A stretch of DNA of 32,000 nt from Patescibacteria group bacterium (GCA_035651435.1 DASRFS010000026.1:1-32000); one strand, 5' to 3'; positions 2,911 through 32,000 are shown, counted from the first letter of the stretch. Translations and numbers: made by a program. The notes: a model not told the origin generated them from the sequence alone.

Positions 2911-2919
2911 TGGTATAAT
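2911..2919 (+). promoter_or_regulatory. Extended -10 element TGgTATAAT, 12 nt upstream of the ATG at 2932
   Basis: ccaTGGTATAATcaacctgagattATG, the same 9-mer as at 1558-1566. Confidence 0.35.
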
Positions 2920-2931
2920 CAACCTGAGATT

Positions 2932-3648
2932 ATGGCATTACACGAAGGAAAACCACAGACATTGGAAGTTCGTCAACCCATTCGGTGGGAACAGACTTCT
3001 GCAAAATCTTTTGAAGATATCTCAAGATATATTGAGCTTCCAAAAGACGTAAGTGGACTTAGCTTTCTCGACATTGGTGCGGGAGGATCAGATTTTACTG
3101 CAACACTTCTTGAAAGAGGCGCTAATGCCTTTGCGATTGATCCTTTATACAAAAGCAGATCCGATTTAAAAGGGAAAATGAAAAATTTCTTTGAACTTTC
3201 ACGCAAAAGAAAACTTAACTTTCTTCCTAGACAGGAAAGGGCATTTGAAAGATTTTATGAGTCTATAAAGACTAATCCTGACCATTATAAAGCCGCTCAA
3301 GCCGAAAACCTACCTTTCCCGGATAATTATTTTGACTACGTTATTTCAATAACTGCTATAACGCAATATTTAGATTCTAATAAAGATACTCTTTTTGCTG
3401 CGGTAAAAGAGGCTATAAGAGTAACCAAACCGCATGGATTAATCCAGATATTTCCATTCCAAGACGAGTATATCTCTGCCGTTTCTCCAATTTCTCCATA
3501 TAGAGAAGCGTATGATACGCTTTATGAAGTTAGACAGAAAAACCAACGGGCCCTTTTAAAGGTTTTGGAAGATAACCAGGCGGTAACTATAAACGTCAGT
3601 CCAACATATGAAGGAAGTAAGCTGGAGATATTAAAAGCAGCGGCTTAA
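2932..3648 (+). CDS. Class I SAM-dependent methyltransferase
   Basis: Motif I FLDIGAGGSDF followed by an acidic residue in AFAIDP. A Methyltransf_11-like segment runs NLPFPDNYFDYVIS ... ALKEAIRVTKPHG. Confidence 0.8.
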   Translation: MALHEGKPQTLEVRQPIRWEQTSAKSFEDISRYIELPKDVSGLSFLDIGAGGSDFTATLLERGANAFAIDPLYKSRSDLKGKMKNFFELSRKRKLNFLPRQERAFERFYESIKTNPDHYKAAQAENLPFPDNYFDYVISITAITQYLDSNKDTLFAAVKEAIRVTKPHGLIQIFPFQDEYISAVSPISPYREAYDTLYEVRQKNQRALLKVLEDNQAVTINVSPTYEGSKLEILKAAA

Positions 3649-8941: not shown

Positions 8942-10223
8942 CTACCCTTTCCATATCCCGTGGATAAAGGCTTGCTTCCCTGACGTTTCCAAGCCCCATA
9001 AGCTTCATGGTTATTCTTTCCAGTCCAAAAGAAAATCCGCCTTCGGGAGGCATTCCGTAGGCAAAAGCCATACGATACATTCCGAAGTTTTTTGGATTAA
9101 GTCCCCTGTCTTTCATCATTTGAACCAACTGGGAATGGTCATTAATCCTCTGCGAACCGCTTGCTATCTCCAAGCCTCTAAATAAAACATCGTAACTTAG
9201 CGAAAAATCGGGATTTTTAGGGTCAGGCATAGTGTAAAAAGCTCTTTTTCTGGTTGGAAAATGGTGGACTATCAAAAGGTCGCTCTTATGCTCTTTTTTT
9301 GCCCACTCCCAAAGATCAATTTCGTCTTGGGGCGATAGATCGGGCGAGCTTTCCTTTTTGAGTAATTTGAAAGCTTCCTCAAGACTAATTCTGGGTACTT
9401 TGACTGGAATTAGGGGTTTATTTGGCAGTTTGACTTTACCTGAAGTTTTTTTGAGCATCTCAACCGAAACAGCCTCGAGAAGATTAAGGAGTTCGTCGAA
9501 CTCAACGAAGCCGAATTCGCAATCCATTTGGGTATTTTCCGAAAGATGCCTTGTGGTAACCGAAGGCTCCGCCCTATAGGCTTTGGATATGGTGTAGACC
9601 CGCTCAAAGACCGGTACCATCATTTGCTTATATAGCTGGGGTGACTGGGTAAGAAAGGCCTTGTGGCCGTAATAATCGAGCTTAAATACCTCTGCACCGC
9701 CTTCCGAGGCTCCGGAGGCTATAGCAGGCACAAAAATCTCTGTACAGTCAAGCTCGCGGCTTGCTTCTCTAAATGAGTCGACAACAGCTTCCTGCACCTT
9801 AAAAATCGAGGCTACGGAAGGATGTCTAAGAGTAAGAGAACGATGATCCAAAAGCGTGGGAAGCTCTAAGCCTAACTCCTCACCCCCCATATCAAAAGGT
9901 AGAGTTTCCGCTTTTGATAGTACTTTTAGGCTTTTAGCCTCAAGCTCGACTTCTCCCGAAGCTAGGTCTTTATTAATGGTTCCCTCGGGCCTCTTTTTAA
10001 CTTCACCCTCGATCTCCACCGCGTCTTCCGGCCTAAGAGTACCAGCTACTCCGTAGGCTACTTCCGAGGCTTTTGGACTCACTACAACCTGCAAAAGACC
10101 CGATCTGTCTCTGATATCTAGGAAAATTAGCTTCCCGTGATCGCGTCGCAAGCGTACCCAGCCTTGAATGAGCGCTTGTGAACCCACGAGCTTGGGGGTT
10201 TCCGAGGCTAAAGTTCTTTTCAT
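8916..10223 (-). CDS. aspS: Aspartyl-tRNA synthetase, archaeal/short type
   Basis: OB-fold N-terminus (IQGWVRLRRDHGKLIFLDIRDRSG) and class II motifs (FRAEPSVTTRHLSE; GGFSFGLERI). The start is set at the ATG at 10223 because homologues start about 20 aa before the GWV motif. The listed extension to 10283 contains promoter-like elements. Confidence 0.88.
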   Translation of the reverse strand: MKRTLASETPKLVGSQALIQGWVRLRRDHGKLIFLDIRDRSGLLQVVVSPKASEVAYGVAGTLRPEDAVEIEGEVKKRPEGTINKDLASGEVELEAKSLKVLSKAETLPFDMGGEELGLELPTLLDHRSLTLRHPSVASIFKVQEAVVDSFREASRELDCTEIFVPAIASGASEGGAEVFKLDYYGHKAFLTQSPQLYKQMMVPVFERVYTISKAYRAEPSVTTRHLSENTQMDCEFGFVEFDELLNLLEAVSVEMLKKTSGKVKLPNKPLIPVKVPRISLEEAFKLLKKESSPDLSPQDEIDLWEWAKKEHKSDLLIVHHFPTRKRAFYTMPDPKNPDFSLSYDVLFRGLEIASGSQRINDHSQLVQMMKDRGLNPKNFGMYRMAFAYGMPPEGGFSFGLERITMKLMGLGNVREASLYPRDMERVDERLSNQR

Positions 10224-12582: not shown

Positions 12583-13929
12583 ATGAAGTTTGATATCCCT
12601 GCCGAAGTTTTAGAAGTCTATAAAAAATTCAAAGAAAATAGGTTTGAAATATATCTCGTAGGAGGATGCGTTCGGGGACTCCTGGGAAAACATAAAGTTT
12701 TGGATTGGGACTTTACCACGGATGCAACTCCTGCGCAAATGTTAAAACTTTTTCCAAAAGCTTTTTATGACAATAAATTCGGAACTGTGGGGATTCCGGT
12801 TGCGGAATCAAAAGTCGTCGAAGTTACTACGTACAGGACTGAAGAGGGTTATAAGAATAGGAGGCATCCAGATAAGATTTCCTGGGGGCAAACGATCGAA
12901 GAAGATTTATCAAGAAGGGATTTTACAATAAATGCGATGGCCATGGATCTGGATACCGATGAGATAATCGATCCATATCATGGACAGGAAGACCTTGATA
13001 AAAAAATTATAAAAGCAGTTGGAGATCCTTCGATGCGGTTTGAAGAAGATGCCCTAAGACTTCTTAGAGCGGTAAGAATCGCGACCCAATTGTCTTTTAA
13101 AATTGATCCAAAGACTTGGGAAGGACTACAAAAAAACGCAAAATTATTATCCGAAATTTCAAAAGAAAGGGTGCGGGACGAGCTTATGAAGATACTCTCG
13201 TCCGATTTTCCTTACGAAGGGATAATCCTACTTAAAGATTCAAAATTACTTGAACAAATCGTACCTGAACTTTTGGAAGGGGTGGGAGTCGAACAGGCAA
13301 GACCCGGGAGGCACCACACGGAAGATGTTTTTACACATAATCTTTTATCTTTAAAATTTTGTCCATCAAAAGATCCGATTGTTAGGTTTGCGACCTTAAT
13401 TCACGACATCGGAAAACCTAGAGTGAAGGGAAAAGACGAGGAAGGCCATGTTATCTTTTATAACCACGAAATAGAAGGAGCAAAACTTGCTTGGGAAATT
13501 TGTGAAAGATTAAAATTTTCAAAGAAAGATAAAGAACGGATTGTAAATTTAATAAGATGGCACATGTTTACGGTTGACGAAAAAATAACCGATTCTGCAA
13601 TTAGAAGATTTATCCGAAGAGTCGGAGTTAAAAATGTAAAAGACATGATGGATCTTCGAGTTGGAGATAGGTTGGGCGGAGGGACACAGACCGCAGAAAG
13701 TTGGAGGCTTAAAAAATTCAAAGAAAGAGTCTCAGGAGAGCTTGCTCCCAAGCCATTTTCTATGAACGACCTTGTTGTAGATGGAAAGGATGTAATGAGA
13801 GTTTTGAATATAAAGCCCGGACCGAAGGTTGGAGAAATTCTTCAGAAATTATTCGAATATGCAGATGAAGATCTTTCGAGAAACAAAAAAGAGGAACTCG
13901 AAAAGAAGATAAAGGAGTATAATAATTGA
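12583..13929 (+). CDS. cca: CCA-adding tRNA nucleotidyltransferase with HD domain
   Basis: LVGGCVRGLL, DWDFTT, RRDFTINAMA, EDALRLLRAVR, and an HD motif (LIHDIGKP). Confidence 0.9.
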   Translation: MKFDIPAEVLEVYKKFKENRFEIYLVGGCVRGLLGKHKVLDWDFTTDATPAQMLKLFPKAFYDNKFGTVGIPVAESKVVEVTTYRTEEGYKNRRHPDKISWGQTIEEDLSRRDFTINAMAMDLDTDEIIDPYHGQEDLDKKIIKAVGDPSMRFEEDALRLLRAVRIATQLSFKIDPKTWEGLQKNAKLLSEISKERVRDELMKILSSDFPYEGIILLKDSKLLEQIVPELLEGVGVEQARPGRHHTEDVFTHNLLSLKFCPSKDPIVRFATLIHDIGKPRVKGKDEEGHVIFYNHEIEGAKLAWEICERLKFSKKDKERIVNLIRWHMFTVDEKITDSAIRRFIRRVGVKNVKDMMDLRVGDRLGGGTQTAESWRLKKFKERVSGELAPKPFSMNDLVVDGKDVMRVLNIKPGPKVGEILQKLFEYADEDLSRNKKEELEKKIKEYNN

Positions 13930-18249: not shown

Positions 18250-18711
18250 TTAACTTCCCGAAACTTCCTTTAAAGCTTTTTTTTCTTCTTCCGAAAGATC
18301 GTGATCTACAGATTTTCCATCAACGATTCTTTTTGCATACCATCTCGTTCCCGATCTTGAGTAAAGTCCCGAAATTATTACACCCGTATTTTTTCCGTCT
18401 ATAAGAGACAATATGAAGCTTTGATCTCCTCCCGTGTCTTTAAAAGGATTAAATCTTAACAGACCAACTTTTTGTATATGTAAAAGTCCTTCCTTTTGAA
18501 TAGTATTGCAATAGTTTTTTAAATTGTCCAGTTCTTTTTTTGTAAAATTTATATCTTTAAGAAGATTTTCCAGAACCGATTTTAGTGTTCGTTGCGTTGT
18601 GCCGGCTGTGAGTTTGTTATAGTGAGAAATTATGTTCCAAGTTAGGATTGATAGTATTAAGAGCCAAATAAAAAAAATCGCGCCCCCTAGCAACACTAAA
18701 TTGGACACCAT
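18250..18711 (-). CDS. DUF4446 family membrane protein
   Basis: N-terminal TM helix; the C-terminal LLRFNPFKDTGGDQSFILSLID...GVIISGLYSR pattern is typical of DUF4446. Confidence 0.75.
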   Translation of the reverse strand: MVSNLVLLGGAIFFIWLLILSILTWNIISHYNKLTAGTTQRTLKSVLENLLKDINFTKKELDNLKNYCNTIQKEGLLHIQKVGLLRFNPFKDTGGDQSFILSLIDGKNTGVIISGLYSRSGTRWYAKRIVDGKSVDHDLSEEEKKALKEVSGS

Positions 18712-18723
18712 AGTTATTCATAC

Positions 18724-18752
18724 ATATTAGCCTCTTGACAGCCTCGTGTCAA
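18724..18752 (-). promoter_or_regulatory. Candidate promoter TTGACA-17-TAATAT for the DUF4446-secF operon
   Basis: The minus strand reads TTGACAcgaggctgtcaagaggcTAATAT, then 12 nt, then the ATG at 18711. Confidence 0.45.
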
Positions 18753-18763
18753 TAGTGTAATCT
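18735..18763 (+). promoter_or_regulatory. Candidate divergent promoter TTGACA-17-TAATCT
   Basis: The plus strand reads TTGACAgcctcgtgtcaatagtgTAATCT, then 11 nt, then the ATG at 18775. An alternative -10, TGTAAT, would give a 15-nt spacer. Confidence 0.35.
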
Positions 18764-18774
18764 AGCCTCACAAC

Positions 18775-19008
18775 ATGGCTAGGAAAACTTTGAAAGAAAA
18801 AACGCTTTCTGACCAACGCCTTCTCTACAGATTCGAAAAGATTCAAACTATCCACCCTTCGGTTCAAAAAGTCACAACAGATACTCGTACCTTAGTTATC
18901 AAAGATCTAAGGAAAACAATGTCTATTACCTTCGTCATTTTAATGCTTCAGATAGTTCTTTTTCTCTTTTTAAAGAATCACTTAATTAATTTGTGGATTT
19001 CGTATTGA
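18775..19008 (+). CDS. Small hypothetical protein with a C-terminal TM helix
   Basis: 77-aa ORF with a basic N-terminal half and hydrophobic ITFVILMLQIVLFLFL. No homology recognised. Confidence 0.4.
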   Translation: MARKTLKEKTLSDQRLLYRFEKIQTIHPSVQKVTTDTRTLVIKDLRKTMSITFVILMLQIVLFLFLKNHLINLWISY

Positions 19009-19029
19009 TAAAGGAGGTGATATTTTAAT

Positions 19030-19173
19030 ATGGCATCAATGTATTGTGTTAAATGTAGAGCAAAGAGAGACGACCCAGCAGCAGTTAAGGTTACTATGAA
19101 AAATGGTAAACCTGCAATGAAAGGAAAATGCCCAGTTTGTGGTACAGGAATGTACAGAATTGGTTCTGCTTAA
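19030..19173 (+). CDS. 47-aa zinc-ribbon protein (DUF5679-like), absent from the supplied ORF track
   Basis: It translates to MASMYCVKCRAKRDDPAAVKVTMKNGKPAMKGKCPVCGTGMYRIGSA, with CxxC...CxxC. It has the strongest SD in the window (AGGAGGTGA, 19012-19020) and is followed by a terminator. Confidence 0.8.
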   Translation: MASMYCVKCRAKRDDPAAVKVTMKNGKPAMKGKCPVCGTGMYRIGSA

Positions 19174-19196
19174 AGTTTCTTTTGAAGCTTATGAAG

Positions 19197-19238
19197 CCCT
19201 CGTATTAAAGCTTGCTCTAGTACGAGGGTTTTCTTTTT
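19197..19238 (+). terminator. Rho-independent terminator (CCCTCGTA ... TACGAGGG plus TTTTCTTTTT)
   Basis: An 8-bp GC-rich stem at 19197-19204 and 19221-19228 is followed by a T-run on the plus strand. Confidence 0.7.
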
Positions 19239-19262
19239 AGACCCTCAGGTCGCAAGCTTCGC

Positions 19263-20789
19263 TTATTTTCCGGTGTAATGGACTAATTTGAAAACCTTTA
19301 CAACCGAAACATCCCACTCGCCTGCTATATTTGCTCTTCCAAAATTTGAAATCTCAAACTGTGGGTAACCCAGAGGCTTACAGGTTGTATCTTCACAAAT
19401 TACAAGCAGCTGATCCGTGACAGTAGTTCTTTTCGGATCGTTCATTATATTTTCTATCTGTACGGGTTTGTGACCTAGGATTTCAAAATAATATCTATAA
19501 GCATGATCCGAATTATGCGCTGTTATGAGTGCGAAATTAAACGGCTTAGCATCGGTTCTTGCTAAAACGAACTCAGAAATTTTCCTGACCTGGTCTTTTT
19601 GCCTGTTGGGTTCAAATCTAAACGGCGCCCCGGAAAGATTGACCAGAATAAGAGCTATGAATATACCTATCGATAGAATCTTGAACAATAAATTTTTAAA
19701 CTCAAACGTCCTGGATAAGAAATTCCCCACAAGTATGAAAGGAAGAGGAAACATAAAACCGAAATAATAATCGTAAATTGGTTTCTTATAGAATCCGAAT
19801 AGAAAGATTCCAAAGAAAATCCAAATCTCAAGCAAAAATTTTACTAGCCTGGACTTGGCCTTAAAAATAAAAAACACAGAAAGTATTCCCAACAAAACCG
19901 TGGAATATTGCCAGATCGAAATCTGCGAAGGGCTATACCACGAGAAGTGATCGTTGGGGGGGAAACTCGTAACCAATTTCCCAAACAGCCTGAAGAATAC
20001 GTCTTTAACAATGTAAACAAATGATACGTTGTCGCCGTAGCCTTTCTGGAAAGTGTTTGTGAAAATAAAACCAATGATCGTTTTAATATTTGGGAAACCG
20101 TGTCTTACCTCAAAACCTAAGAAGGGAGAAAATCCAATTAGAAATCCGAGTAGAACCTGAAGATATTCGCTAAACAACAGCTTAATTTTCTTTTTTAGAT
20201 AAAAGTCGGCAGTGAAAATATACGTACCGATGATAATTATTAAGAAGATAGCTAAATAATGAAGCTGTAGGGCTATCCCAAGGAGCACTCCTATTGAAAT
20301 AAATTTTTTAAAGGATGGGCTTTGAACCGATTTATAGGTTAAATATAAAGTTAGGAGAGAAACAAAAGGCATTGGGTTTGGATTCCAAGAAGATCTGGAA
20401 TACGCAACTACCAAAGGGGAGATTGCATAAAGTGCCGAGGAAAAAATAGCCGCACGCACCCCGAAAAATTCTTTGGTGACTTTATAAATTAGAAAAACGG
20501 TGGCAATTCCAATAAGAGCAACCATGACTGCAGGCCCTACCGGATCGAGTTTGAAAAGCCATAAGAATGGAGCCATAAAATAGTAGTAGATAGGACCTAG
20601 AAAAAAATCTCCCGCGGAAGCTCGAGGGCCAAGAAGCGTTAAATGTCCCTCTAAAATTCCCTTTGCTACAAGAACATCTCTTCCCTCGTCCCCCAAAAAT
20701 GTCATGTAATCGGAAATTCTGTAAAGTCGAAAGAAAGCTGCGACAATTAAAATCGTGGGAAGAATCAGGAACTCGATTTTTTTCCTCAT
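19263..20789 (-). CDS. GT-C fold glycosyltransferase, ArnT/PMT-like (GT39/GT83 type)
   Basis: It is polytopic, with more than 10 hydrophobic segments, and has a first-loop DE motif (FLGDEGRD). The listed start at 20807 is TTG. The ATG at 20789 forms an ATGA overlap with the upstream stop, so I prefer it. Confidence 0.8.
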   Translation of the reverse strand: MRKKIEFLILPTILIVAAFFRLYRISDYMTFLGDEGRDVLVAKGILEGHLTLLGPRASAGDFFLGPIYYYFMAPFLWLFKLDPVGPAVMVALIGIATVFLIYKVTKEFFGVRAAIFSSALYAISPLVVAYSRSSWNPNPMPFVSLLTLYLTYKSVQSPSFKKFISIGVLLGIALQLHYLAIFLIIIIGTYIFTADFYLKKKIKLLFSEYLQVLLGFLIGFSPFLGFEVRHGFPNIKTIIGFIFTNTFQKGYGDNVSFVYIVKDVFFRLFGKLVTSFPPNDHFSWYSPSQISIWQYSTVLLGILSVFFIFKAKSRLVKFLLEIWIFFGIFLFGFYKKPIYDYYFGFMFPLPFILVGNFLSRTFEFKNLLFKILSIGIFIALILVNLSGAPFRFEPNRQKDQVRKISEFVLARTDAKPFNFALITAHNSDHAYRYYFEILGHKPVQIENIMNDPKRTTVTDQLLVICEDTTCKPLGYPQFEISNFGRANIAGEWDVSVVKVFKLVHYTGK

Positions 20790-21922
20790 TTCGAAGAGTT
20801 TTTCCAAATAATTCGGCTGTATACAGTGAAGTTATAAATAAGCAAGACTCCGGTAGCTAAGACAAAATATATGTAAGGACGAGGAAAATCTCTACCAAAT
20901 AGTATCTCTCCTAATTGAATTAATCCAGATTGAATGATGAGTACACCGATGTTTGACGTTGCAAAAAAGAATACCATTTTTTTAAAGTATAAAATTGGAT
21001 TGCTTGCTTTTGCATGTCTAAAGGTCCACAAATTGTTAAGATTATAGTTCGAGAAAATTGCAAGCTGGGCGGCTAAAAGATTTGATAATCCGAGAGGAAG
21101 AGTTGATTTTGAAATTAAGGCACGATAAACGAGGAGTTGAATAATAAATCCTGTTCCTCCAACTACCAAAAACTTCCCGAATGGCCCGGTGACAATTTCT
21201 TTTATCCGTGCGATTATGATGTATTTGAGAAGGTCAACAATATATTTGGTAGGAGCAATTTTCGAACGACCCAAAGTTCGATCGGTAAAATTTATTGGGA
21301 CTTCACCTATCTTAAACCCATCCCTTGCAGCCTTATGCAAAAAAGAAACTTGAAAAGTATACCCTTTAAAAGAAGTCAGCTCTTGTTTTTCTTTTAGGAA
21401 AACTTCCTTTTTCAATGCCCTGTATCCGCCTGTCCAGTCATGAATTTTAAATCTCATTAGAATTGTCCTAACCAGGAGATTTCCAAAAACAGAGAATGCC
21501 TTACGCTGAATAGGCCAGTTTGCAGGAATTGATCCTCCTTCGCTATACCTTGTTCCGACAACCATATCAAAACCATTATCCAATTTTTCTAAAAACTGAG
21601 GAATTTTATAAGGATCATGGGAAAGATCAGCATCCATTTCAAACATCACATCGGCTCCCATCTTTTCTATAGCATAAGTCATTGCCCTAACGTAGGCAGC
21701 ACCTAAACCTTGTTTTTCACCAACAGAGAGCTCAATATTCTTCCACTTTTTAGCAAGCTCCTTAACAACAGTTGAAGTCCCATCCGGCGAAGAATCGTCC
21801 GCAACTAAAATGTTCATATTATGGCTCTTTATCTTTGGGAAAATTTCCTTCTCCAAGATCTCGACTAACTTTTCTATATTACCTTTCTCGTTATACGTAG
21901 GAATTATTACTACAACTTTCAT
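20786..21922 (-). CDS. Polyprenyl-phosphate glycosyltransferase (GT2) fused to a C-terminal GtrA-like membrane domain
   Basis: VVIIPTYNEKGNI, VADDSSPDGT, EMDADLSHDP (DxD/DAD region), then four TM helices with NYNLNNLWTFR typical of GtrA. The ATG at 21922 gives an ATGA overlap with the uxs stop. Confidence 0.85.
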   Translation of the reverse strand: MKVVVIIPTYNEKGNIEKLVEILEKEIFPKIKSHNMNILVADDSSPDGTSTVVKELAKKWKNIELSVGEKQGLGAAYVRAMTYAIEKMGADVMFEMDADLSHDPYKIPQFLEKLDNGFDMVVGTRYSEGGSIPANWPIQRKAFSVFGNLLVRTILMRFKIHDWTGGYRALKKEVFLKEKQELTSFKGYTFQVSFLHKAARDGFKIGEVPINFTDRTLGRSKIAPTKYIVDLLKYIIIARIKEIVTGPFGKFLVVGGTGFIIQLLVYRALISKSTLPLGLSNLLAAQLAIFSNYNLNNLWTFRHAKASNPILYFKKMVFFFATSNIGVLIIQSGLIQLGEILFGRDFPRPYIYFVLATGVLLIYNFTVYSRIIWKNSSK

Positions 21923-22863
21923 ATTTGAAAATATTCGATTGTCTTCTTTAATCCTTCCTCTACCGCAATCTTCGGTTCCCATCCCAAAATCATTTTTGCC
22001 TTAGAAATGTCCGGCTTCCTCTTCTTTGGATCATCCTCCGGCAATTCTTCAAAATCTATCCTAGACTTGGAATTTGTCAATTCCAAAATTTTATTAGCGA
22101 TTTCAAGAACAGTCAGTTCCAAAGGATTTCCTAGATTAATAATTTCACCTTTTGCTTCATTAGTAAACATCAATTTTTTAAGCCCCAAAACCATATCGTC
22201 AACAAAACACAAGCTTCTGGTTTGAGATCCATCCCCATAGACGGTAATGGGGTCGTTCTTTTTAGCTTGCTTTATAAAGTTAAAAATTACTCTTCCATCG
22301 TCCGGCATTTTGGGCCCGTACGTATTAAAAATCCTCGCAATCCTGACGTCTGAACCAAACTTTCTAAAATAAGCCATCGTCATTGCTTCTCCAAATCTTT
22401 TCCCTTCATCGTAGACGGAACGGATTCCGACAGGGTTTACATTTCCGAAATAGTCCTCGCTTTGAGGCGAAACGCTCGGATCCCCATATGCTTCCGAAGA
22501 AGATGCAAAAACAAATTTTGCGTTGTTTTTCTTGGCAAATTCTAAAAGATTTTGAGTTCCCAAAGAATTCACCAAAAGAGTTTCGATTGGCATGTGAATA
22601 TAGCTTTTAGGATTTGTCTTGCTTGGGGACGCGGGAGACGCCAGATGGAATACAAAGTCAATTTTTTCCGATAAATCTAACTTAGAAGTTACGTCTTTTT
22701 CGATAAATTTAAAATTTTGGTTGTCGAGAAATTCTTCGATATTTTTTTTGTCACCGGTTACAAGATTATCAATACAATAAACTAAAAAGTTTTCTTCAAG
22801 AAGAGAATTGCATAAGTGGGAACCGATGAATCCTGCTCCTCCGGCAACGACAGCAGTTTGCAT
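21919..22863 (-). CDS. uxs: UDP-glucuronate decarboxylase (UDP-xylose synthase)
   Basis: Near-collinear resemblance to UXS: GGAGFIGSHL, DNLVTGDKKN, HLASPASP, YDEGKR, ARIFNTYGPKM..DGRV, GDGSQTRS, DDPKKRKPDISKAK. The listed start at 22902 is TTG. The ATG at 22863 places the GxGxxG motif at residues 9-14. Confidence 0.9.
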   Translation of the reverse strand: MQTAVVAGGAGFIGSHLCNSLLEENFLVYCIDNLVTGDKKNIEEFLDNQNFKFIEKDVTSKLDLSEKIDFVFHLASPASPSKTNPKSYIHMPIETLLVNSLGTQNLLEFAKKNNAKFVFASSSEAYGDPSVSPQSEDYFGNVNPVGIRSVYDEGKRFGEAMTMAYFRKFGSDVRIARIFNTYGPKMPDDGRVIFNFIKQAKKNDPITVYGDGSQTRSLCFVDDMVLGLKKLMFTNEAKGEIINLGNPLELTVLEIANKILELTNSKSRIDFEELPEDDPKKRKPDISKAKMILGWEPKIAVEEGLKKTIEYFQI

Positions 22864-22867
22864 AAAT

Positions 22868-25127
<2,260 letters not shown>

Positions 25128-25135
25128 GAATTTAT

Positions 25136-25981
25136 TTAGGGACTTTTGAAATCAAGAAGACCTTCTTGCAAGGTCTTCATTTTGATCCCCAATCTACTAA
25201 TTTTATCATTTTTTAGGTTCAAATGAAAACCCCTTTCAGCTCTTCCTTTAAAATAATCTGCTCTCGTTGTTTTAGCAATCTTAGATTTACTAAAACCAAA
25301 TGTATCGGCAATTAAAACTGCCGTATCGAAAGGAGAAATGGGCTGGCTCCCCGTAACATGGAATACTCCGGTTTGTTCTTTTTGAACAAGTGAGTCTAAC
25401 GCAAAGGCAATATCATCGATAAACGTAGGGACCATAATATGGTCTGTTACCATCGTGAGGTTTTCGCCTTTTTTGAATTTTTCAATCAACGCTCTAATAA
25501 AATCAGTCCGGACAAACTTCGTTCTATACGGATAAGCAATTCTTGCAATTATATATTCCGCTCCGGAATTTTGAACAGCAAGTTCTCCTTCGTATTTTGT
25601 CTTTCCGTACCAATTTATGGGATTGGGCGTATCGTCTTCGACATAACTTTCCTTTTCCCCATCGAAGACAAAATCAGTCGAAACATAGATCAATTTTTTT
25701 TTGAGTTTTAAACATGCCTCGGAAACGTTCTTTGTTCCCTCAACATTTATTTTCCATGCTTCCCCTTGCTCTCCGAGATTCTTGTCTTCTTCGCAACCGT
25801 CAACATGGGCTTTTGCGGCCAAGTGAAGAACTATTTGGGCATTTGAATTTTCTATGCGATTTTGAATTGAGTCCTTTTGGGTTATATCTTCTGTCGAGGA
25901 ATCAAATTCGTAATTGTCTTTTAGAAGTTCTACAATTCTCGATCCAACTAAACCTGATCCCCCTGTAACTAAAATCTTCAT
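25136..25981 (-). CDS. rfbD: dTDP-4-dehydrorhamnose reductase-like NDP-sugar 4-ketoreductase (RmlD family)
   Basis: MKILVTGGSGLVGS, STDFVFDG, YGKTKYEGE (YxxxK). ATGA overlap with the rfbB stop. Confidence 0.8.
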   Translation of the reverse strand: MKILVTGGSGLVGSRIVELLKDNYEFDSSTEDITQKDSIQNRIENSNAQIVLHLAAKAHVDGCEEDKNLGEQGEAWKINVEGTKNVSEACLKLKKKLIYVSTDFVFDGEKESYVEDDTPNPINWYGKTKYEGELAVQNSGAEYIIARIAYPYRTKFVRTDFIRALIEKFKKGENLTMVTDHIMVPTFIDDIAFALDSLVQKEQTGVFHVTGSQPISPFDTAVLIADTFGFSKSKIAKTTRADYFKGRAERGFHLNLKNDKISRLGIKMKTLQEGLLDFKSP

Positions 25982-28071
25982 GCATTATATTGTCTTTTAT
26001 AGTAATCTTTATAATCTCCGCTTTTTATTCTCTTCCACCAGTCCTCATTCTTTTTGTACCAATCGATAGTTTTCTCCAACCATTCATCAAAGTTATGCAT
26101 CGGATGCCATCCCAATTCATTTTTAACCTTAGACCAATCAACAGAATATTTTCTGTCATGTCCGGGTCTGTCTTTTACAAACTCAATATAACTTTCATCT
26201 TTTCCTAAAATTTTCAAAATCTTTTTTATTAAAGTCAAATGATTCATATCTTCCGTCATTCCTCCAACACAATAGGTTTCACCTATTTTCCCTTTTTCTA
26301 AAACTATCTCTATCGCTCTTACATGATCCTCGACATAAAGCCAATCTCTGACGTAAAGACCATCCCCATATAAAGGAACTTTTTTCTCTTCCAACAAATT
26401 GGTAATAGCAAGAGGAATTAACTTTTCCGGAAACTGATATGGACCAAAGTTATTTGAACAATTTGTAATAGTAATAGGAAGCTCATAAGTATGATAATAG
26501 GCATTTACCAAATGGTCGGATCCTGCTTTGGTTGCCGAATAAGGACTTCTTGGATCGTATTTTGTTTTTTCATTGAATTTTTCTTTTGACTCAAGGGTAA
26601 GCGCACCAAATACTTCGTCCGTATTGCCACAAAAAACAAATGTTCCATTTCGTTCTACAAGTAAGTTTTTATTTAGCGGAACCTTAATGCACCAAATTTT
26701 CCCATTATAATAACTTTTTGATACTTGTTGTAATTCTTTGCTTATTCGTATCGATCTATGTTGCCTTGTAACAGTTATGACATAGCTTTTCTTTCCCTTT
26801 ATAAATCTCCCTTTATAATAATTTCCTTCGATCTTTCTCTCAAATACATGGGGTGTAATACCTAGTTTTATACAAAGCTCGGAAAATGTTTCTACCAATC
26901 TCCAGCTTGATGTATATAATCTCGGATTATTGTTCCAGGATCCATCTGAATCAATTAATCCATCAAATAGCGCTTGTAAACTTTCTCTATCTGCTTCCAA
27001 CGCCCATTCAGGTATTTTTTTATTCAGTGCTCCTTTTCCGCAATCCTTGAGTATGCCCGAATAAGATTTTGAAGAAAAGTATAAGTGCTCACCAGCTTTT
27101 CCAGTGTGAGCATGCCAATTAATTTTTAAATCTGTAAGTGTTTTCTCCAGTCTATTTCTCCCCTTATCTTTAACTGGTATATCCAAAAATACTCTATATG
27201 AATGACTTATTGTATGCTGTTGATATCCGATATGGCTCATAGCTAAAAACTGACCTGTTTGAGAATCTCTTGATTGATACACATATTCAGTTTTACTTAA
27301 GCCAGATTTATTGGTGAATTTCTTTTTTTGATAGGCAAGAAAACCATCTCCTATAAAAACCCCAAGTAGATACATGAAGTTTTTATTAATTTTTACGTTG
27401 CTTTCCCATACTCCCTCCGGGAGAGAATTTACTGATCCAAGTTGACGAGCTTCTTTGAATATAAGTTTCTTTGTTTTAGTCGTCTGCAGGAGCATTCTAT
27501 GATTTGGTGTAACTTTCATATGTAATTTATTGGAATTAATAGCTATCATATCCCCTTGATAATCTTGTATAATAATTTTTTCTATCTTCTTCCACTCCAT
27601 GTTTTTCGTTTGCATATTGAGGGTCAAAACCTCATCTGTTTTTTCTAATTCCCAATAATACTTAAGACCTCTTTTTGTTAAAGCCCGCGTTTTTTCATCA
27701 TAGCAAGATATATGATGAAATCTTTTTACGTTTGCTTTTAGCGCAGCATCGAGCAAAATCTGGGTTCCTAAAACATTAGTTGTAACAAAAGGCGAAGGTT
27801 CTGAAATTGAGCGATCAACATGACTTTCTGCTGCGAAATGAACAACAGTATCGATTCCTGCCATGAGATTATTTACTGTCTGGGTGTCGCAAATATCACC
27901 TTTTACAAATTTGTAGTTTTTTGAGCTCTCAATATCCCTAAGATTTTCTAAATTCCCTGCATAAGTCAACTTATCCAAATTTATAACTTGATCTTCGGGA
28001 TGATTTTTGATCCAGTAGAGTATAAAATTTGAGCCGATAAATCCGGCTCCACCTGTTACAAGAATCTTCAT
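25978..28071 (-). CDS. rfbB: dTDP-glucose 4,6-dehydratase interrupted by an in-frame intein (precursor 697 aa; exteins 122 + 214 = 336 aa)
   Basis: The N-extein MKILVTGGAGFIGSNF...VVHFAAESHVDRS...FHHIS is followed, after the insert, by TDEVFG...YSATKAGSDH...RPGHDRKY. The start is set at the ATG at 28071, because the listed 28152 start would overlap rfbA. Confidence 0.9.
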   Translation of the reverse strand: MKILVTGGAGFIGSNFILYWIKNHPEDQVINLDKLTYAGNLENLRDIESSKNYKFVKGDICDTQTVNNLMAGIDTVVHFAAESHVDRSISEPSPFVTTNVLGTQILLDAALKANVKRFHHISCYDEKTRALTKRGLKYYWELEKTDEVLTLNMQTKNMEWKKIEKIIIQDYQGDMIAINSNKLHMKVTPNHRMLLQTTKTKKLIFKEARQLGSVNSLPEGVWESNVKINKNFMYLLGVFIGDGFLAYQKKKFTNKSGLSKTEYVYQSRDSQTGQFLAMSHIGYQQHTISHSYRVFLDIPVKDKGRNRLEKTLTDLKINWHAHTGKAGEHLYFSSKSYSGILKDCGKGALNKKIPEWALEADRESLQALFDGLIDSDGSWNNNPRLYTSSWRLVETFSELCIKLGITPHVFERKIEGNYYKGRFIKGKKSYVITVTRQHRSIRISKELQQVSKSYYNGKIWCIKVPLNKNLLVERNGTFVFCGNTDEVFGALTLESKEKFNEKTKYDPRSPYSATKAGSDHLVNAYYHTYELPITITNCSNNFGPYQFPEKLIPLAITNLLEEKKVPLYGDGLYVRDWLYVEDHVRAIEIVLEKGKIGETYCVGGMTEDMNHLTLIKKILKILGKDESYIEFVKDRPGHDRKYSVDWSKVKNELGWHPMHNFDEWLEKTIDWYKKNEDWWKRIKSGDYKDYYKRQYNA
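26623..27705 (-). mobile_element. Intein, 361 aa, with a LAGLIDADG homing-endonuclease domain
   Basis: It starts with a Cys codon (27703-27705) and has block B VTPNHR (TxxH). The two LAGLIDADG motifs are LLGVFIGDGFL and LFDGLIDSDGS. It ends ...NGTFVFCGN (Asn codon 26623-25), followed by the Thr codon at 26620-22. The exteins rejoin to the conserved HHIS-TDEVFG. Confidence 0.88.
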
Positions 28072-28075
28072 TGAG

Positions 28076-28789
28076 TTACTTTTTCTTAGTTGCCCAGAAG
28101 GAACCCGATTGGAAAAGACTATCGAAGGTTCCGGCATCGCTCCAAAAACCATTGAGCTTTGTCCAATTAAGTTTTCCTTCTTTAAGATATTCCTTGTTTA
28201 CATCGGTTATTTCCAATTCTCCGCGCCCAGATGGTTTTATATTTTTTATATGATCAAAAACCTTCGAATCATAAATATAAAGCCCGGTAATCGCTAGGTT
28301 ACTTTTTGGATCCTTAGGCTTCTCCTCTATTTCTTTAATTTTATCTCCCTCGACTTGAGCAACGCCAAATCTCTGCGGATCTTCGACTTCTTTTAGGAAT
28401 ACTAAAGCCCCGCCTTTGAAGTTCTTAACATCTTCCGAGATATCCGCATCGGTAGTATTGTCGCCTAAAATTACGGTCACGCTTTCTCCGTCTGCAAAAT
28501 CCTCCGCAAGAGACAGAGCATCTGCAATTCCTCCATCCGGTTTTTCCTGATATGCATATTCCAAATGTCTAAGCCCTACCTCTTTTCCGTTTTTTAGGAC
28601 TCCCAAAAAATGTCCGACATGCGGCCCGGATGTAACGATAAGAACATCTTTAATTCCCGCGTTAACAAGAGTTTGTATAGGATAAAAAATCATTGGCTTA
28701 TCGTAAACCGGAAGAAGATGCTTATTTGATACGTGAGTCAGAGGATAAAGCCTCGTGCCCAAACCTCCTGCTAAGATTACACCTTTCAT
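28076..28789 (-). CDS. rfbA: Glucose-1-phosphate thymidylyltransferase, short form (sugar-phosphate nucleotidyltransferase)
   Basis: MKGVILAGGLGTRLYPLT..NKHLLPVYDKPMIFYPI, LGDN, and EKP...SNLAITGLYIYD. At 237 aa it is shorter than the roughly 290-aa RmlA. Confidence 0.8.
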   Translation of the reverse strand: MKGVILAGGLGTRLYPLTHVSNKHLLPVYDKPMIFYPIQTLVNAGIKDVLIVTSGPHVGHFLGVLKNGKEVGLRHLEYAYQEKPDGGIADALSLAEDFADGESVTVILGDNTTDADISEDVKNFKGGALVFLKEVEDPQRFGVAQVEGDKIKEIEEKPKDPKSNLAITGLYIYDSKVFDHIKNIKPSGRGELEITDVNKEYLKEGKLNWTKLNGFWSDAGTFDSLFQSGSFWATKKK

Positions 28790-28792
28790 AAA

Positions 28793-29050
28793 TCAAAGAT
28801 TAAATCCTCCTTTTAAAATAAAGAAGATAACGGCGCCTCCGAGCCCTGCCATTAGCGTATATTCTACCACAATTTTAGCAGTCAAATCGTGATGTATGTG
28901 GTGGTGGACTATCCCCCATAGAATATAAAAAAGCGAAGTGATTGTGATAGTCATAGCCTGAAATTGTTTGTCGGGCGAAGCAGCCGCTATCAAAAATCCC
29001 AAGACCAGAATTAGGACAAGGAAAAAATAATAAAAGACATGTCTTTTCAC
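28793..29050 (-). CDS. Small 3-TM membrane protein with a His cluster (VHHHIHHD)
   Basis: GTG start at 29050 in a GTGA overlap with the upstream stop. Three hydrophobic segments. No homology recognised. Confidence 0.45.
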   Translation of the reverse strand: MKRHVFYYFFLVLILVLGFLIAAASPDKQFQAMTITITSLFYILWGIVHHHIHHDLTAKIVVEYTLMAGLGGAVIFFILKGGFNL

Positions 29051-29886
29051 AGTATCACTCCTCTTGCAATTATGAATATCATTAATAGAATAAGCGACAA
29101 AAATAGTACATGGTCTAAATTATGCCCTACGAATCTTGTCACCTTTTTTCTTTCAATAACAATAAAATCGACGCTTAAAACCAGAATAAAAAGTGAAATT
29201 ATGCCTACTCCTATATTCCGGGAAAGAGAAACACTATCAATCAGTGGCCGGTTGCTGGAATTCAAAACAACCGGCACAGGTTCCTGAGCAGACCTTGCGA
29301 CACTTGGGATTGAGTTTTGGGCAAAACTTGTATTTCCAAGCATTTCAACCACCAAAACAGTATCCTCACCCAAAAGAGTTCCATTTTTGACAGCAAACCC
29401 TACTTCGTTATAATTTCTCGATAACATATTCTCCCTGTGCTCGGGACTAGCCATCCAAGCATCAACAACCGACTTTGAATCGGTAAAACCTCTTGCAAGA
29501 TTCTCTCCCGCGTAAACGTATTGGTAGCCTGCATTTTTTATGAAAACCCAGGGGGTTTTGCCGGTTGGGGAATTATGAGCCCAATAATTTTCGGCAAACA
29601 TATCCTGAGCCTTGTCGCTTGCTGCCTTGTTTAGCTTGTCATTTAGAGACAGCGCCCCTGCGCCATCTTCTTGTCTCTTTTGGTTAGTAAAGCTCAACAA
29701 TTGTTCCGTCGTTACATCCGAGGAAATTCCGAGAACTTGGGGGAAATTTGCTTTAACAAAAGAGAGGAAAAACGTACCCGAAAATAGTAAGACGATAAAA
29801 AGAAGGATTACCCTGTGGTGTAAAAGTTTGGACCTGAAATTGTTATGAAAATGAGGAAAAAACAAATCGTGGAAGAAATTCTTCAT
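29047..29886 (-). CDS. CAP/SCP (YkwD-like) domain protein with N- and C-terminal TM segments
   Basis: The CAP-domain signature region reads YWAHNSP...YAGENLARGF...DAWMASPEHRENML...VGFAV. Confidence 0.8.
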   Translation of the reverse strand: MKNFFHDLFFPHFHNNFRSKLLHHRVILLFIVLLFSGTFFLSFVKANFPQVLGISSDVTTEQLLSFTNQKRQEDGAGALSLNDKLNKAASDKAQDMFAENYWAHNSPTGKTPWVFIKNAGYQYVYAGENLARGFTDSKSVVDAWMASPEHRENMLSRNYNEVGFAVKNGTLLGEDTVLVVEMLGNTSFAQNSIPSVARSAQEPVPVVLNSSNRPLIDSVSLSRNIGVGIISLFILVLSVDFIVIERKKVTRFVGHNLDHVLFLSLILLMIFIIARGVIL

Positions 29887-29891
29887 ACAAT

Positions 29892-30203
29892 TTAAGTATA
29901 CACCGGTAAAACCGATTGGCCAATTTTTCCATTAACGGGAATCTTCAAGGAAAAACCCATCGCGTTAGCAATCGAAACCCCGACTCTTATTCCTGTAAAT
30001 GATCCGGGGCCGGGATTAACTTTTATTTCCGTAAGATCTTGAGGCGTCAATTTATGCTCCTTCAGAAAGCTGCTTACAAGGTTTAACGCAACTTCCTTCT
30101 TGTTTTGCAAAATCTTATTTTTTTTACTGAACTTCTCTCCATTAACTTCAAGTTCTAATATGACTTCGTCTTTATTTGTAGTATCGATATATAAAATTGT
30201 CAT
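29892..30203 (-). CDS. tsaB: tRNA t6A37 biosynthesis protein TsaB, N-terminal-domain-only form (103 aa)
   Basis: ILYIDTT...PGPGSFTGIRVGVSIANAMGFSLKIPV matches the YeaZ/TsaB N-terminal half. The ORF ends 5 nt before the next gene, so no C-terminal half is encoded here. Confidence 0.75.
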   Translation of the reverse strand: MTILYIDTTNKDEVILELEVNGEKFSKKNKILQNKKEVALNLVSSFLKEHKLTPQDLTEIKVNPGPGSFTGIRVGVSIANAMGFSLKIPVNGKIGQSVLPVYT

Positions 30204-30775
30204 AGGTCAATTTTAACTGCTCCTTCTCTTAAAATTTTCCAGGGGTTTTGCGAGCAATCAATAACCGTCGAGGCTTGTTTGAGTTTTGTTTCACCTGGTA
30301 GTACGAAATCCACCAATTTGACAAGTTCAGAATTCAACTGTTGAACAGAGTACGGTGTATCTTCGCCATGGAAATTTGCAGATGGACCGAGAATCGGAAC
30401 ACCGACGCCTTTTATAAGTTCAATTGTGGTCTCATGGTTTGGCACGCGAATTCCAATAGTCGATCCTCCGCCACGAACCAATTCGGGAACTTTTTCCGTT
30501 TTGCACGGAAGAACTATTGTTAATGCTCCCGGCCAATACAATTTCATAAGATTTTGGACATCATTCGGTATTTCCTCAACATACTCTTTTGCCATCTCTA
30601 TTGAACTAACTAAAACTGGCGTCGCTTGATTCACCGGTCTTTTTCTAATATTGAATAATCTTTTAATCGTTTCGTCTTTATCGATTCTGCATCCTATTCC
30701 AAAAGCAGTATCTGTTGGAAAAATTATAATTCCTCCGTCATTGAGTATTTTTATTGCGGTTTGAAGATCATTCAT
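30200..30775 (-). CDS. tsaC: L-threonylcarbamoyladenylate synthase TsaC (YrdC/Sua5 family, single domain)
   Basis: IIIFPTDTAFGIGC, WPGALTIVL, IGIRVPNH, PSANFHG. Confidence 0.9.
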   Translation of the reverse strand: MNDLQTAIKILNDGGIIIFPTDTAFGIGCRIDKDETIKRLFNIRKRPVNQATPVLVSSIEMAKEYVEEIPNDVQNLMKLYWPGALTIVLPCKTEKVPELVRGGGSTIGIRVPNHETTIELIKGVGVPILGPSANFHGEDTPYSVQQLNSELVKLVDFVLPGETKLKQASTVIDCSQNPWKILREGAVKIDL

Positions 30776-31190
30776 GACTGTTAAATTTTATTTCCCTTTC
30801 ATTTCCATTTAGATGTTTGAACCAAATGTCTATTCTTTTGTTCGGCAAATTCTTGAGTTTTTCCGCCCATTCAACAGCAACAATGCTACTGTCATCCTCT
30901 ATTAATTCTGACAATTGTTCGTTAATACTTTCGTCGTTCTCGACTCTATACAGATCTACGTGATAGAAAATTCTGCTTGAACTCATCTCGTGTTTTCTGA
31001 TTAGAATAAACGTCGGAGATGTAATTCTTTCCCGAATTCCCAATCCCCGTGCTAAACCCTGAATAAAACTTGTCTTACCGCTTCCCAAATCGCCATACAA
31101 GGCAAGAAAGTTATTGTATAGATTATGAGCTAATTCCTCACCGAGTTTCTGTGTTTCTTCGACACTTTTTGTTACAACTGTTTTATCCAT
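30768..31190 (-). CDS. tsaE: tRNA t6A37 biosynthesis ATPase TsaE
   Basis: Walker A GDLGSGKTSF, SPTFIL, HVDLYR, VAVEWAE. Confidence 0.9.
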   Translation of the reverse strand: MDKTVVTKSVEETQKLGEELAHNLYNNFLALYGDLGSGKTSFIQGLARGLGIRERITSPTFILIRKHEMSSSRIFYHVDLYRVENDESINEQLSELIEDDSSIVAVEWAEKLKNLPNKRIDIWFKHLNGNEREIKFNSHE

Positions 31191-31972
31191 TTGCTCTTTA
31201 TGTAAAACCCCAGAGACGCAAGAATTATTATAGCCCCAACACCAATAAATATTTTCGATAAATTATTTTCCGAATCTGCAAGAGTTTTAACTTCTTCCTT
31301 TACGGTCTTTGGCGTAGCAAAAGAAGACTTAGTCCCCAGAACGTCTGCCCCAGTTGTTATATCTTTTGTAAAATCCGCTCCAACCTTTGTACCAATCGTG
31401 CTGGAAGTAAGAACTGGTGAATTTTTAGCGGTTGATGTTGGGGATGCTGTTATTGGCGAAGAAGTTGAAGTTAAACTTGGACTCGGAGAAGAAGTAGGTG
31501 TCGGAGTTGCTGCATCGATAGTCAATAAATTCTCATTCGACCAGATATAAGTGCCACCGGCAGTATATCTCCTGACTTTTAATCCATAGCTTCCAGACCC
31601 ATCATAAAACGTAGATGCTACGTCAAGTTTCCCCTTTACTATTCCGCTCCAATTTCCGTTTGAATCTAATATTATTGGTAAATAATTTGTGTAAGTTGAG
31701 TCGTTATGCCAATCGGTTCCATTAAAAGTATATCCAAAATAATTAGTCGAGCCGTTTTTATATAAATTTATTCTGAGATAATTCATTGTATTTGCTGAAC
31801 CACTTGATACTTTGACTTCTACATCAAATGGATCCGTAAAGACAGCCGAGGGAGCATCCGTAACCGTAACTGCAACTGCGAGGGCTTTTTGAGGGAAAAA
31901 ATAAAAGAAGAAAAAGAGGAATAGGCAGAAGCTTGCGAGCAAAGCTCTAAAAATTAATAATACTTTTTTCAC
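31172..31972 (-). CDS. Secreted, C-terminally anchored surface protein with an S/T/P-rich linker
   Basis: The listed start at 31996 is TTG. The GTG at 31972 gives (M)KKVLLIF...PQKALA|VAV, a classical signal peptide. A beta-rich roughly 120-aa domain is followed by ATPTPTSSPSPSLTSTSSPITASPTSTAKNSPVLTSST and a C-terminal TM helix. Confidence 0.6.
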   Translation of the reverse strand: MKKVLLIFRALLASFCLFLFFFFYFFPQKALAVAVTVTDAPSAVFTDPFDVEVKVSSGSANTMNYLRINLYKNGSTNYFGYTFNGTDWHNDSTYTNYLPIILDSNGNWSGIVKGKLDVASTFYDGSGSYGLKVRRYTAGGTYIWSNENLLTIDAATPTPTSSPSPSLTSTSSPITASPTSTAKNSPVLTSSTIGTKVGADFTKDITTGADVLGTKSSFATPKTVKEEVKTLADSENNLSKIFIGVGAIIILASLGFYIKSKWIKQL

Positions 31973-32000
31973 ATCATTGATATATCCTCGCCTCAATTAT

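Follow-up and report, generated by a model that had tools for sequence, protein, structure and literature searches.

The last two genes of an eight-gene operon in a Patescibacteria group bacterium (GCA_035651435.1) probably encode a two-protein version of three-component extracytoplasmic glycosylation, with GDP-mannose as the most plausible sugar donor. The operon lies on the minus strand at positions 19263 to 28789 of a 32,000-nucleotide stretch (the window) of contig C26, from a 0.55-Mb genome (G000) that is 77.6% complete. The two genes are GT2-GtrA (20786-21922), which would encode a polyprenyl-phosphate glycosyltransferase resembling dolichyl-phosphate mannose synthase (DPMS), and GT-C (19263-20789; 508 amino acids), which would encode a lipid-phosphate-sugar-dependent glycosyltransferase of the ArnT/PMT_2 type. 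We hypothesize that the DPMS-like GT2, working at the cytoplasmic face, charges polyprenyl phosphate with a single sugar taken from a nucleotide sugar; that the GtrA-like four-helix domain fused to it holds the enzyme in the membrane and perhaps moves the product across as well; and that, once the lipid-phosphate-sugar has been flipped, the ArnT-like GT-C draws on it to glycosylate an outside acceptor, either a surface protein or a wall polymer. The lipid carrier, the donor sugar, the flipping by the transmembrane domain and the pairing of the two enzymes are elements of this scheme that we infer. A sequence-only reading of the window had seen the logic of the Arn and Ppm1/Pmt systems in the tail end of the operon (ugd, uxs, GT2 and GT-C), and this general logic is supported: the GT2 matches the DPMS of Pyrococcus furiosus (PfDPMS) by sequence and fold, and the GT-C has an ArnT-like predicted fold with an invariant Asp-Glu motif.

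In the GT2-GtrA protein, a cytoplasmic GT-A domain (residues ~1 to 225) is followed by interface helices and by a GtrA-like membrane domain of four helices (residues ~247 to 375). It matches PF00535 with 89.6 bits (cut-off, 23.3; residues 25 to 195 of the long open reading frame [ORF]) and PF04138 with 52.1 bits. The best sequence match in the PDB is PfDPMS (5mlz; 127 to 134 bits), compared to 45 bits for ArnC and 36 bits for GtrB. An AlphaFold (AF2) model built from 37 homologs (predicted local distance difference test [pLDDT], 81) has four long C-terminal helices, and a Foldseek search with this model returned 5mlz, 9ep0 and 5mm1 at the top (E 2e-19; 28% identity over 376 columns, the four C-terminal helices included).

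Contact residues were read from the HMMER alignment to 5mlz and interpreted via PMC5526996, in PfDPMS numbering. In PfDPMS, Tyr10, Asp39, Gly68 and Leu69 contact guanosine, Asp91 and Gln93 the metal and diphosphate, Asp89 and His94 the mannosyl hydroxyls, and Arg117, Arg131 and Ser135 the phosphate of dolichyl phosphate; Glu12, Arg202 and Lys208 belong to the closing loop (PMC5526996). The equivalents of Y10, E12, D39, G68-L69, D89-A-D91, H94, R117, R131, S135, R202 and K208 are invariant in the 37 homologs; in our protein, these include D97-A-D99, R125, R140, S144, R215 and K221. Among the contacts checked, the exceptions are Gln93, which is Ser here, and Lys178, which is Thr. We take the change of Gln93 to Ser to be a DPM1 substitution, and the stretches DADLSHDP, GTRY, GYTFQ and EVPINFTDRxxGxSK are presumably like those of eukaryotic DPM1 and actinobacterial Ppm1, a resemblance that provides a lead and not a test.

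How close does this bacterial enzyme come to the type-III DPMS of archaea? By strict motif definition, type-III DPMS have DADxQHPP (x = L, F or Y), the Arg117 of SRY, Arg131, Ser135 and the Lys178 of KIL, and are said to occur only in archaea (PMC12992685). Like PfDPMS (5MLZ, 5MM1 and 9EP0; PMC5526996, PMC12992685), our protein combines the catalytic domain, interface helices and four-helix GtrA-like transmembrane domain in one monomer and retains the DAD metal site, His94, Arg117/Arg131/Ser135 (in a TRY context) and the Arg202/Lys208 loop. In the polar pocket of the transmembrane domain the equivalent of Asn277 is conserved; the HMMER alignment ends before the gating residue Phe338, which the strict definition includes along with Asn248 and Asn277. 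It differs from the archaeal enzyme in its bacterial host, in having DADLSHDP instead of DADxQHPP, in the alignment of Lys178 to the Thr of GYTFQ and of Asn248 to Gln, and in its carrier, presumably unsaturated polyprenyl phosphate and not dolichyl phosphate. We would call the GT2 a bacterial variant of the type-III DPMS design. The fusion of synthase and GtrA domain is not unusual: it is the known type-III arrangement, and in Pfam the domain goes by the name GtrA/DPMS. This layout is not confined to hyperthermophilic archaea, though the bacterial version falls outside the strict motif definition. Crystallography of PfDPMS reported in 2026 placed dolichyl-phosphate mannose upside-down in the transmembrane domain, and translocation was proposed (PMC12992685); by analogy, this lends support to the suggestion of the sequence-only reading that the fused GtrA-like domain here may flip its product.

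The GT-C protein matches PF13231 (61.1 bits; cut-off, 26.1), and a PDB sequence search with it returned nothing at E<=1. Its AF2 model (pLDDT, 86.7; predicted template modeling score, 0.87) has a multi-helix membrane core and a small C-terminal alpha/beta domain (residues ~397 to 508). Foldseek matched the model best to ArnT (5f15 and 5ezm; E 2e-8, template modeling score of ~0.6), followed by STT3/AglB/PglB, Pmt4, ALG enzymes and mycobacterial arabinosyltransferases. All 26 matches at E<=0.001 were GT-C enzymes, with Pmt4 and Pmt1/2 below ArnT and the oligosaccharyltransferases, and O-antigen ligases were absent from them; the earlier assignment of the protein as ArnT/PMT-like is thus supported by its predicted structure. 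Directly after the first transmembrane helix comes D34-E35-G36-R37-D38, invariant in 40 sequences. This stretch occupies the position of the catalytic acidic motif of ArnT/PMT-type enzymes in the first extracytoplasmic loop, and the positively charged N-terminus together with the model would place the loop outside. Neither the PMT core (PF02366) nor PMT_4TMC was reported for the protein at E<=0.001, and a few of its homologs have a precomputed PF02366 match. Because of the lack of a match to PF02366 or PMT_4TMC, we file the GT-C as ArnT/PMT_2-like, in the neighborhood of CAZy families GT83 and GT39, and do not call it a Pmt.

The pairing of the two enzymes is supported by their ATGA overlap and by the conservation of their order. 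Counting this genome, 39 of the 41 genomes compared, drawn from its genus, family and order, have a 1:1 ortholog of the GT-C (46 to 72% identity; 38 of 40 relatives); the two relatives without it are 72 to 74% complete. We mapped the window proteins onto ~20 kb around 37 GT-C orthologs and found the same order nearly everywhere (tsaE-tsaC-tsaB-CAP-[small transmembrane ORF]-rfbA-rfbB-rfbD-ugd-[rmd]-gmd-uxs-GT2-GT-C-...-DUF4446-DUF3048-orf191-secD-secF). GT2 and GT-C are adjacent in 35 of the 37 loci, all of which come from the window's own taxonomic order (Levybacteria/Microgenomates). A lack of conserved gene order in relatives, which would have spoken against the sequence-only reading, was thus not seen. 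Because the same order surrounds a 1:1 GT-C ortholog in 37 genomes of the order, the arrangement is not due to chance; the locus is a vertically inherited core and not a mobile island. Its conservation across the order between the threonylcarbamoyladenosine (t6A) genes and secDF marks it as a locus for a core surface modification.

Which sugar does the GT2 load? In the sequence-only reading, ugd and uxs would supply UDP-xylose or some other UDP-pentose, the GT2 would place the pentose on polyprenyl phosphate and the GT-C would transfer it to the surface; the translational coupling of uxs to the GT2 gene was taken as a clue to the donor. The product of uxs (21919-22863, minus strand; 314 amino acids) is, by sequence, a genuine UDP-glucuronate decarboxylase (UDP-xylose synthase [UXS]): it matches human UXS1 (2b69) over its full length with 330 bits (E 1.6e-97), versus 143 bits for the next, non-UXS family, and reaches 93 to 98 bits on ArnA-type models with cut-offs of 294 to 777. 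The gene overlaps the GT2 start by ATGA and stands directly upstream of GT2 in 29 of the 37 orthologous loci and in a more distant one (L081). Precedents for a polyprenyl-phosphate pentose used by an outside GT-C exist in the mycobacterial decaprenyl-phosphate arabinose/Emb-Aft system and the GT136 pentofuranose three-component systems (PMC11127046). However, the donors in these systems come from phosphoribosyl pyrophosphate (PRPP) by a UbiA-type or PRPP-dependent synthase, and not by a GT2 from UDP-pentose, and flipping is by MATE proteins; genes for a PRPP-type synthase and MATE flipping are not present here.

The distribution of uxs argues against a pentose donor. Among the 37 orthologous loci, 7 have no uxs and one more retains only a 16% remnant of it; GT2 and GT-C then directly follow gmd or rmd. 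A whole-genome search at E<=1e-30 found no UXS ortholog in six of these genomes, four from one genus (G030, G032, G033 and G034; 96 to 100% complete) and two others (G026, 94%; G008, 88%), although an ArnA-type decarboxylase may be among their unassigned short-chain dehydrogenases/reductases (SDRs); the seventh has only a paralog of 47% identity elsewhere. In the uxs-less genomes the GT2 is 56 to 64% identical to the window's protein, a range like that of most uxs-containing genomes, and the GT-C is 50 to 56% identical. In a maximum-likelihood tree, the genomes without uxs do not group together: their rows are scattered over four positions between rows that have the gene, and long branches are absent; therefore, uxs was lost repeatedly (at least four times) without loss or visible respecialization of the GT2/GT-C pair, which is hard to reconcile with UDP-xylose as an obligatory GT2 donor. 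Nor does the coupling of uxs to GT2 identify the donor, as all junctions in the operon are equally tight. Many other glycosyltransferases could use UDP-xylose, and the GT2 resembles a GDP-mannose enzyme much more closely than it does ArnC and GtrB, which use UDP-sugars. Hence, of the co-occurrence of uxs, GT2 and GT-C expected among relatives, the GT2-GT-C adjacency held and the part concerning uxs did not (absent or truncated in 8 of 37 loci), and we consider a UDP-pentose donor very unlikely.

Five relatives (loci L041, L055, L061, L067 and L071 of G005, G002, G017, G012 and G006) have a strongly divergent GT2-GtrA (39 to 42% identity) at the same position beside an intact uxs. These proteins form a separate clade with 100/100 support, and in two of the five relatives several kilobases are inserted between GT2 and GT-C.

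GDP-mannose is the most plausible donor because all the DPMS donor and acceptor contacts checked, except Gln93 and Lys178, are invariant; taken by itself, we would give this assignment somewhat less than an even chance. The genome encodes a ManC-like guanylyltransferase, and homologs of GalU and of the GlmU N-terminal part are also present. GtrB has DADLQ as well, the Asp39 position binds uracil in GtrB, and PfDPMS has some activity with GDP-glucose (PMC5526996). With DADLQ and the Asp39 position common to GtrB, the signature residues favor GDP-mannose without establishing it. We also sampled 250 Patescibacteria genomes (GT2 homolog at E<=1e-40; ManC at E<=1e-30), with hand tallies in which related genomes are not independent. 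Such proteins proved not to be rare: a GT2-GtrA homolog was found in 58 of the genomes, ~25 times at full length with the transmembrane domain. ManC occurs in 48 of the 58 GT2-positive and in 97 of the 192 GT2-negative genomes. ManC and ugd are both enriched and neither is universal, so that the phylum-wide co-occurrence is ambiguous.

Several observations weigh against GDP-mannose as the donor or against the two-protein scheme as a whole. Lys178 of PfDPMS is Thr here, and the DPMS signature is partly common to UDP-sugar enzymes. In the same phylum-wide sample, the association with ugd (42 of 58 GT2-positive versus 34 of 192 GT2-negative genomes) is stronger than that with ManC, the most persistent neighbor of the GT2 is ugd and no mannose gene, and a ManC homolog at E<=1e-30 is lacking from 10 GT2-positive genomes. 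Among more distant Patescibacteria, GT2-GtrA frequently occurs without an adjoining GT-C gene, and because the genome has 12 GT-C paralogs, one synthase may serve several of these transferases. A search among long ORFs of other Patescibacteria for Rosetta-stone fusions of GT2 and GT-C yielded candidates that were rejected, as they proved to be a GT2 joined to a second, processive-type GT2.

The distribution of ugd leads to an alternative in which the GT2 loads a uronic acid, glucuronic acid or, in lineages with a UDP-glucuronate 4-epimerase, galacturonic acid, with ugd as the dedicated supplier, as in Rhizobium RgtE and RgtA-D. Besides the enrichment of ugd in GT2-positive genomes, the gene is present in every orthologous locus (37 of 37) and lies next to or not far from GT2-GtrA in 11 of 20 distant loci, and an SDR beside ugd in one of these (L083, the one case checked) resembles UDP-glucuronate 4-epimerase (6zl6; 190 bits). 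However, six genomes of the same class that are closed or nearly so (G043, G072, G097, G164, G272 and G285) have a full-length GT2-GtrA and no ugd, and there are closed genomes of this class in which GT2-GtrA and ManC occur without ugd. Moreover, the second, short GT2 between ugd and GT2-GtrA in distant loci could be the uronic acid enzyme, the GT2 retains the DPMS His94 and the DAD-L-S-H signature, and the association with ugd may only mirror glycan-rich lineages. We regard a uronic acid donor as unlikely.

A donor unconnected with the nearby genes would be a ubiquitous hexose or hexosamine (UDP-glucose or UDP-N-acetylglucosamine, as for GtrB, CsbB and GacI); GDP-D-rhamnose made by gmd and rmd belongs to the same group of alternatives. 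The GalU and GlmU homologs in the genome would provide for the former, and two GT2-positive genomes without ManC and ugd homologs (G070 and G229) fit a universal donor. For the latter speaks the position of rmd and gmd just upstream of the GT2 gene in most relatives. The weak NCBIfam matches of the GT2 to AglJ, PgfS and PpgS point in the same direction, but all of them are 5- to 8-fold below the cut-offs. The similarity to GtrB and ArnC is far below that to DPMS, and rmd is absent from this genus, in which the GT2 is still kept. This group of donors is, in our view, rather unlikely. An unlikely reading is also that the GT2 is a self-flipping bacterial DPMS-type enzyme whose product, polyprenyl-phosphate xylose or polyprenyl-phosphate glucuronate/galacturonate, would be a lipid-phosphate donor new to enzymes of this class; the ArnT-like GT-C conserved across the order would then use it for a central and perhaps essential modification of the Levybacteria/Microgenomates envelope.

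GDP-mannose remains our preferred donor, and the scheme invites comparison with systems in other bacteria. In actinobacteria (Streptomyces coelicolor, PMC5882110; Mycobacterium tuberculosis), a DPM1-family polyprenyl-phosphate mannose synthase, Ppm1, likewise feeds a GT-C, Pmt, in a monoderm-type envelope. Ppm1/Pmt glycosylates secreted and surface proteins, and in our case a surface protein with a linker rich in Ser, Thr and Pro is encoded in the same gene array. Unlike the GT2 described here, Ppm1 has no GtrA-like domain, the actinobacterial genes are not usually adjacent, and Pmt (GT39) has PF02366 and PMT_4TMC, whereas the GT-C here has only PF13231 and ArnT as its nearest structure. The surface protein (31172-31996, minus strand) has a signal peptide and a C-terminal transmembrane anchor, as judged from sequence composition, and 24 of the 30 residues of its linker are Ser, Thr or Pro. 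In 10 or more of the 37 related loci, a homolog is encoded on the upstream side of tsaE, and we suggest, speculatively, that the protein is a candidate acceptor of the GT-C.

The operon also resembles the ArnC/ArnE-ArnF/ArnT pathway for lipid A aminoarabinose, with its sequence of Ugd, a decarboxylating SDR, a GT2 synthase, small GtrA-like flippases and a GT-C, and ArnT is the best structural match of our GT-C. It differs in its decarboxylase, which is UXS-type and not ArnA-type, and in its GT2, which is much nearer to DPMS than to ArnC. Domain searches found no aminotransferase (ArnB), formyltransferase or deformylase (ArnD) domain among the operon genes, and the host is a Gram-positive-like bacterium of the candidate phyla radiation (CPR) with no sign of lipid A in the window. 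The GtrA/GtrB/GtrC, CsbB/GtcA/YfhO and streptococcal GacI/GacJ/GacL systems (PMC7389260, PMC5836110) have the same three components, a GT2 synthase, a GtrA-family translocator and an extracytoplasmic GT-C. Here, in contrast, synthase and GtrA-like module form one protein, whose synthase part falls in the DPMS and not the GtrB branch, and the GT-C is PMT_2/ArnT-like and not GtrC/YfhO-type. The operon is hence a lineage-specific instance of well-known lipid-phosphate-sugar glycosylation systems; it extends a known three-component logic to a new lineage and does not overturn current understanding.

The envelopes of CPR/Patescibacteria are almost uncharacterized, although much of the coding capacity of their tiny genomes goes into glycosyltransferases, and we found nothing specific in the literature on GT-C enzymes or polyprenol-mannose in these bacteria. 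The operon is one of few glycan loci whose order and position, between the t6A genes and secDF, are conserved across a whole order. The GT2 and GT-C form a defined protein pair to express and provide an entry point to CPR envelope biology.

The six genes upstream of GT2-GtrA would provide a variable supply of nucleotide sugars, namely a dTDP-6-deoxyhexose, UDP-glucuronic acid, UDP-xylose and GDP-4-keto-6-deoxymannose, and probably also feed the many Leloir glycosyltransferases of the genome. Gene identities were obtained with Pfam and NCBIfam profiles and PDB sequence searches, which upheld all the names given from the sequence alone (rfbA, rfbB with an intein, rfbD, ugd, gmd, uxs, GT2-GtrA and GT-C). 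All genes lie on the minus strand. Starts were set at the in-frame ATG fitting the N-termini of the family, as some starts in the mechanical ORF list were too far upstream. rfbA (28076-28789; 237 amino acids) encodes a member of the glucose-1-phosphate thymidylyltransferase family (PF00483, 187 bits; TIGR01207 rmlA, 241.7 bits, under the cut-off of 360). rfbB (25978-28071; 697 amino acids) encodes a dTDP-glucose 4,6-dehydratase that matches TIGR01181 over two stretches with 458.5 bits (cut-off, 365), between which lie matches to Intein_splicing and LAGLIDADG_3. The LAGLIDADG intein (~26620 to 27705) is specific to this genome; the RmlB halves are contiguous in all 37 related loci, that of a genome from the same genus included. 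An RmlD-family 4-ketoreductase (rfbD-like, 25136-25981; 281 amino acids; PF04321, 201 bits; TIGR01214, 189.6 bits, under the cut-off of 224), a UDP-glucose 6-dehydrogenase (ugd, 23841-25127; 428 amino acids) and a GDP-mannose 4,6-dehydratase (gmd, 22868-23836; 322 amino acids; TIGR01472, 438.1 bits, above the cut-off of 415) follow. The ugd product has three UDPG_MGDP_dh domains and scores 464.8 bits on TIGR03026, above the cut-off, and 519.9 bits on the TuaD model.

In this genus, neither deoxy-sugar route looks complete. RmlC (PF00908) was found neither in this genome nor in its 99%-complete congener; in the order, RmlC is patchy, present in 28 of 41 genomes and not found in this genus. Likewise, Rmd, the usual partner of gmd, is missing from this genome and from the same congener. 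In most relatives rmd lies between ugd and gmd and encodes a reductase of the GDP-6-deoxy-D-lyxo-4-hexulose type (225 bits to 2pk3). Between rfbA and rfbB, many relatives have a gene for a NudE-like Nudix hydrolase that this genome lacks; the idea that RmlC is hidden in this gap was rejected, as the gap encodes the hydrolase. The stretches concerned are 22868-28789 of the window and, in a relative's locus (L052), 9054-10019 and 13193-13735.

The eight minus-strand genes are packed as the sequence-only reading had described. From rfbA to GT-C, the junctions are a 4-nt gap, an ATGA overlap, gaps of 8, 4 and 4 nt and two further ATGA overlaps. The rfbA ATG is preceded by AGGAGG, and the co-directional array does not start at this gene: six more genes with equally tight junctions extend upstream to the end of the window, encoding a small membrane protein, a CAP-domain protein, TsaB, TsaC/Sua5, TsaE and the Ser/Thr/Pro-rich surface protein. 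The first of these (28793-29050, minus strand; 85 amino acids) lies 3 nt upstream of rfbA, is His-rich with three transmembrane helices and has no Pfam match; about half of the orthologous loci have a homolog there, and the gene is possibly part of the same unit as rfbA to GT-C. The operon is flanked by housekeeping genes of bacterial type (secDF, recJ, tsaE/tsaC/tsaB and a gene for a D-Ala-D-Ala carboxypeptidase), and the nearest protein homologs are labeled Candidatus Levybacteria, Microgenomates or Patescibacteria. A scan of positions 18600 to 32000 for promoters and terminators gave counts at the level of shuffled sequence (36 versus 33.7 and 13 versus 11.5) and thus no information on transcript ends. 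A small gene for a CxxC...CxxC zinc-ribbon protein (19030-19173, plus strand) is convergent with GT-C, and a hairpin between the two probably terminates both transcripts.

The genome as a whole encodes 12 GT-C proteins of the PMT_2 type (10 above the Pfam cut-off), 9 GT2 and ~10 GT4 (contigs C6, C13, C16, C22, C26, C39, C45, C51 and C54), and it also has one phosphoglycosyl transferase of the Bac_transf type. For so small a genome, the part given over to glycosylation is unusually large. A second, unfused three-component set on contig C39 (L078, positions 1 to 4344) comprises a stand-alone GtrA (118-561), a membrane-less GT2 of 238 amino acids with weak PpgS/ArnC-like matches (2113-2829) and the nearest paralog of the window's GT-C (2802-4337). 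Contig C10 (10164-15381) carries a classical cluster for polyprenyl-diphosphate glycan assembly, with Bac_transf, a ManC-like guanylyltransferase, three GT4 and one GT2, which likely consumes nucleotide sugars made by the genes in the window.

In distant Patescibacteria, the GT2-GtrA homologs form a separate motif subfamily, with DADFQH and FAYKI in place of the DADLSH and GYTFQ found here, and the neighborhood there reads CAP, GT2-GtrA, short GT2, ugd and SDR. A CAP-domain membrane protein is the most persistent neighbor of GT2-GtrA in the phylum and stands right beside it in no fewer than 11 of 20 distant loci (L083-L097), which hints at a functional tie between the two. Two other loci (L099, 788-2956; L101, 1240-3480) encode the fusions of a DPMS-like GT2 to a processive-type GT2 (Glyco_tranf_2_3), of 722 to 746 amino acids, and in L101 the fusion gene is followed by a PMT_2 GT-C gene.

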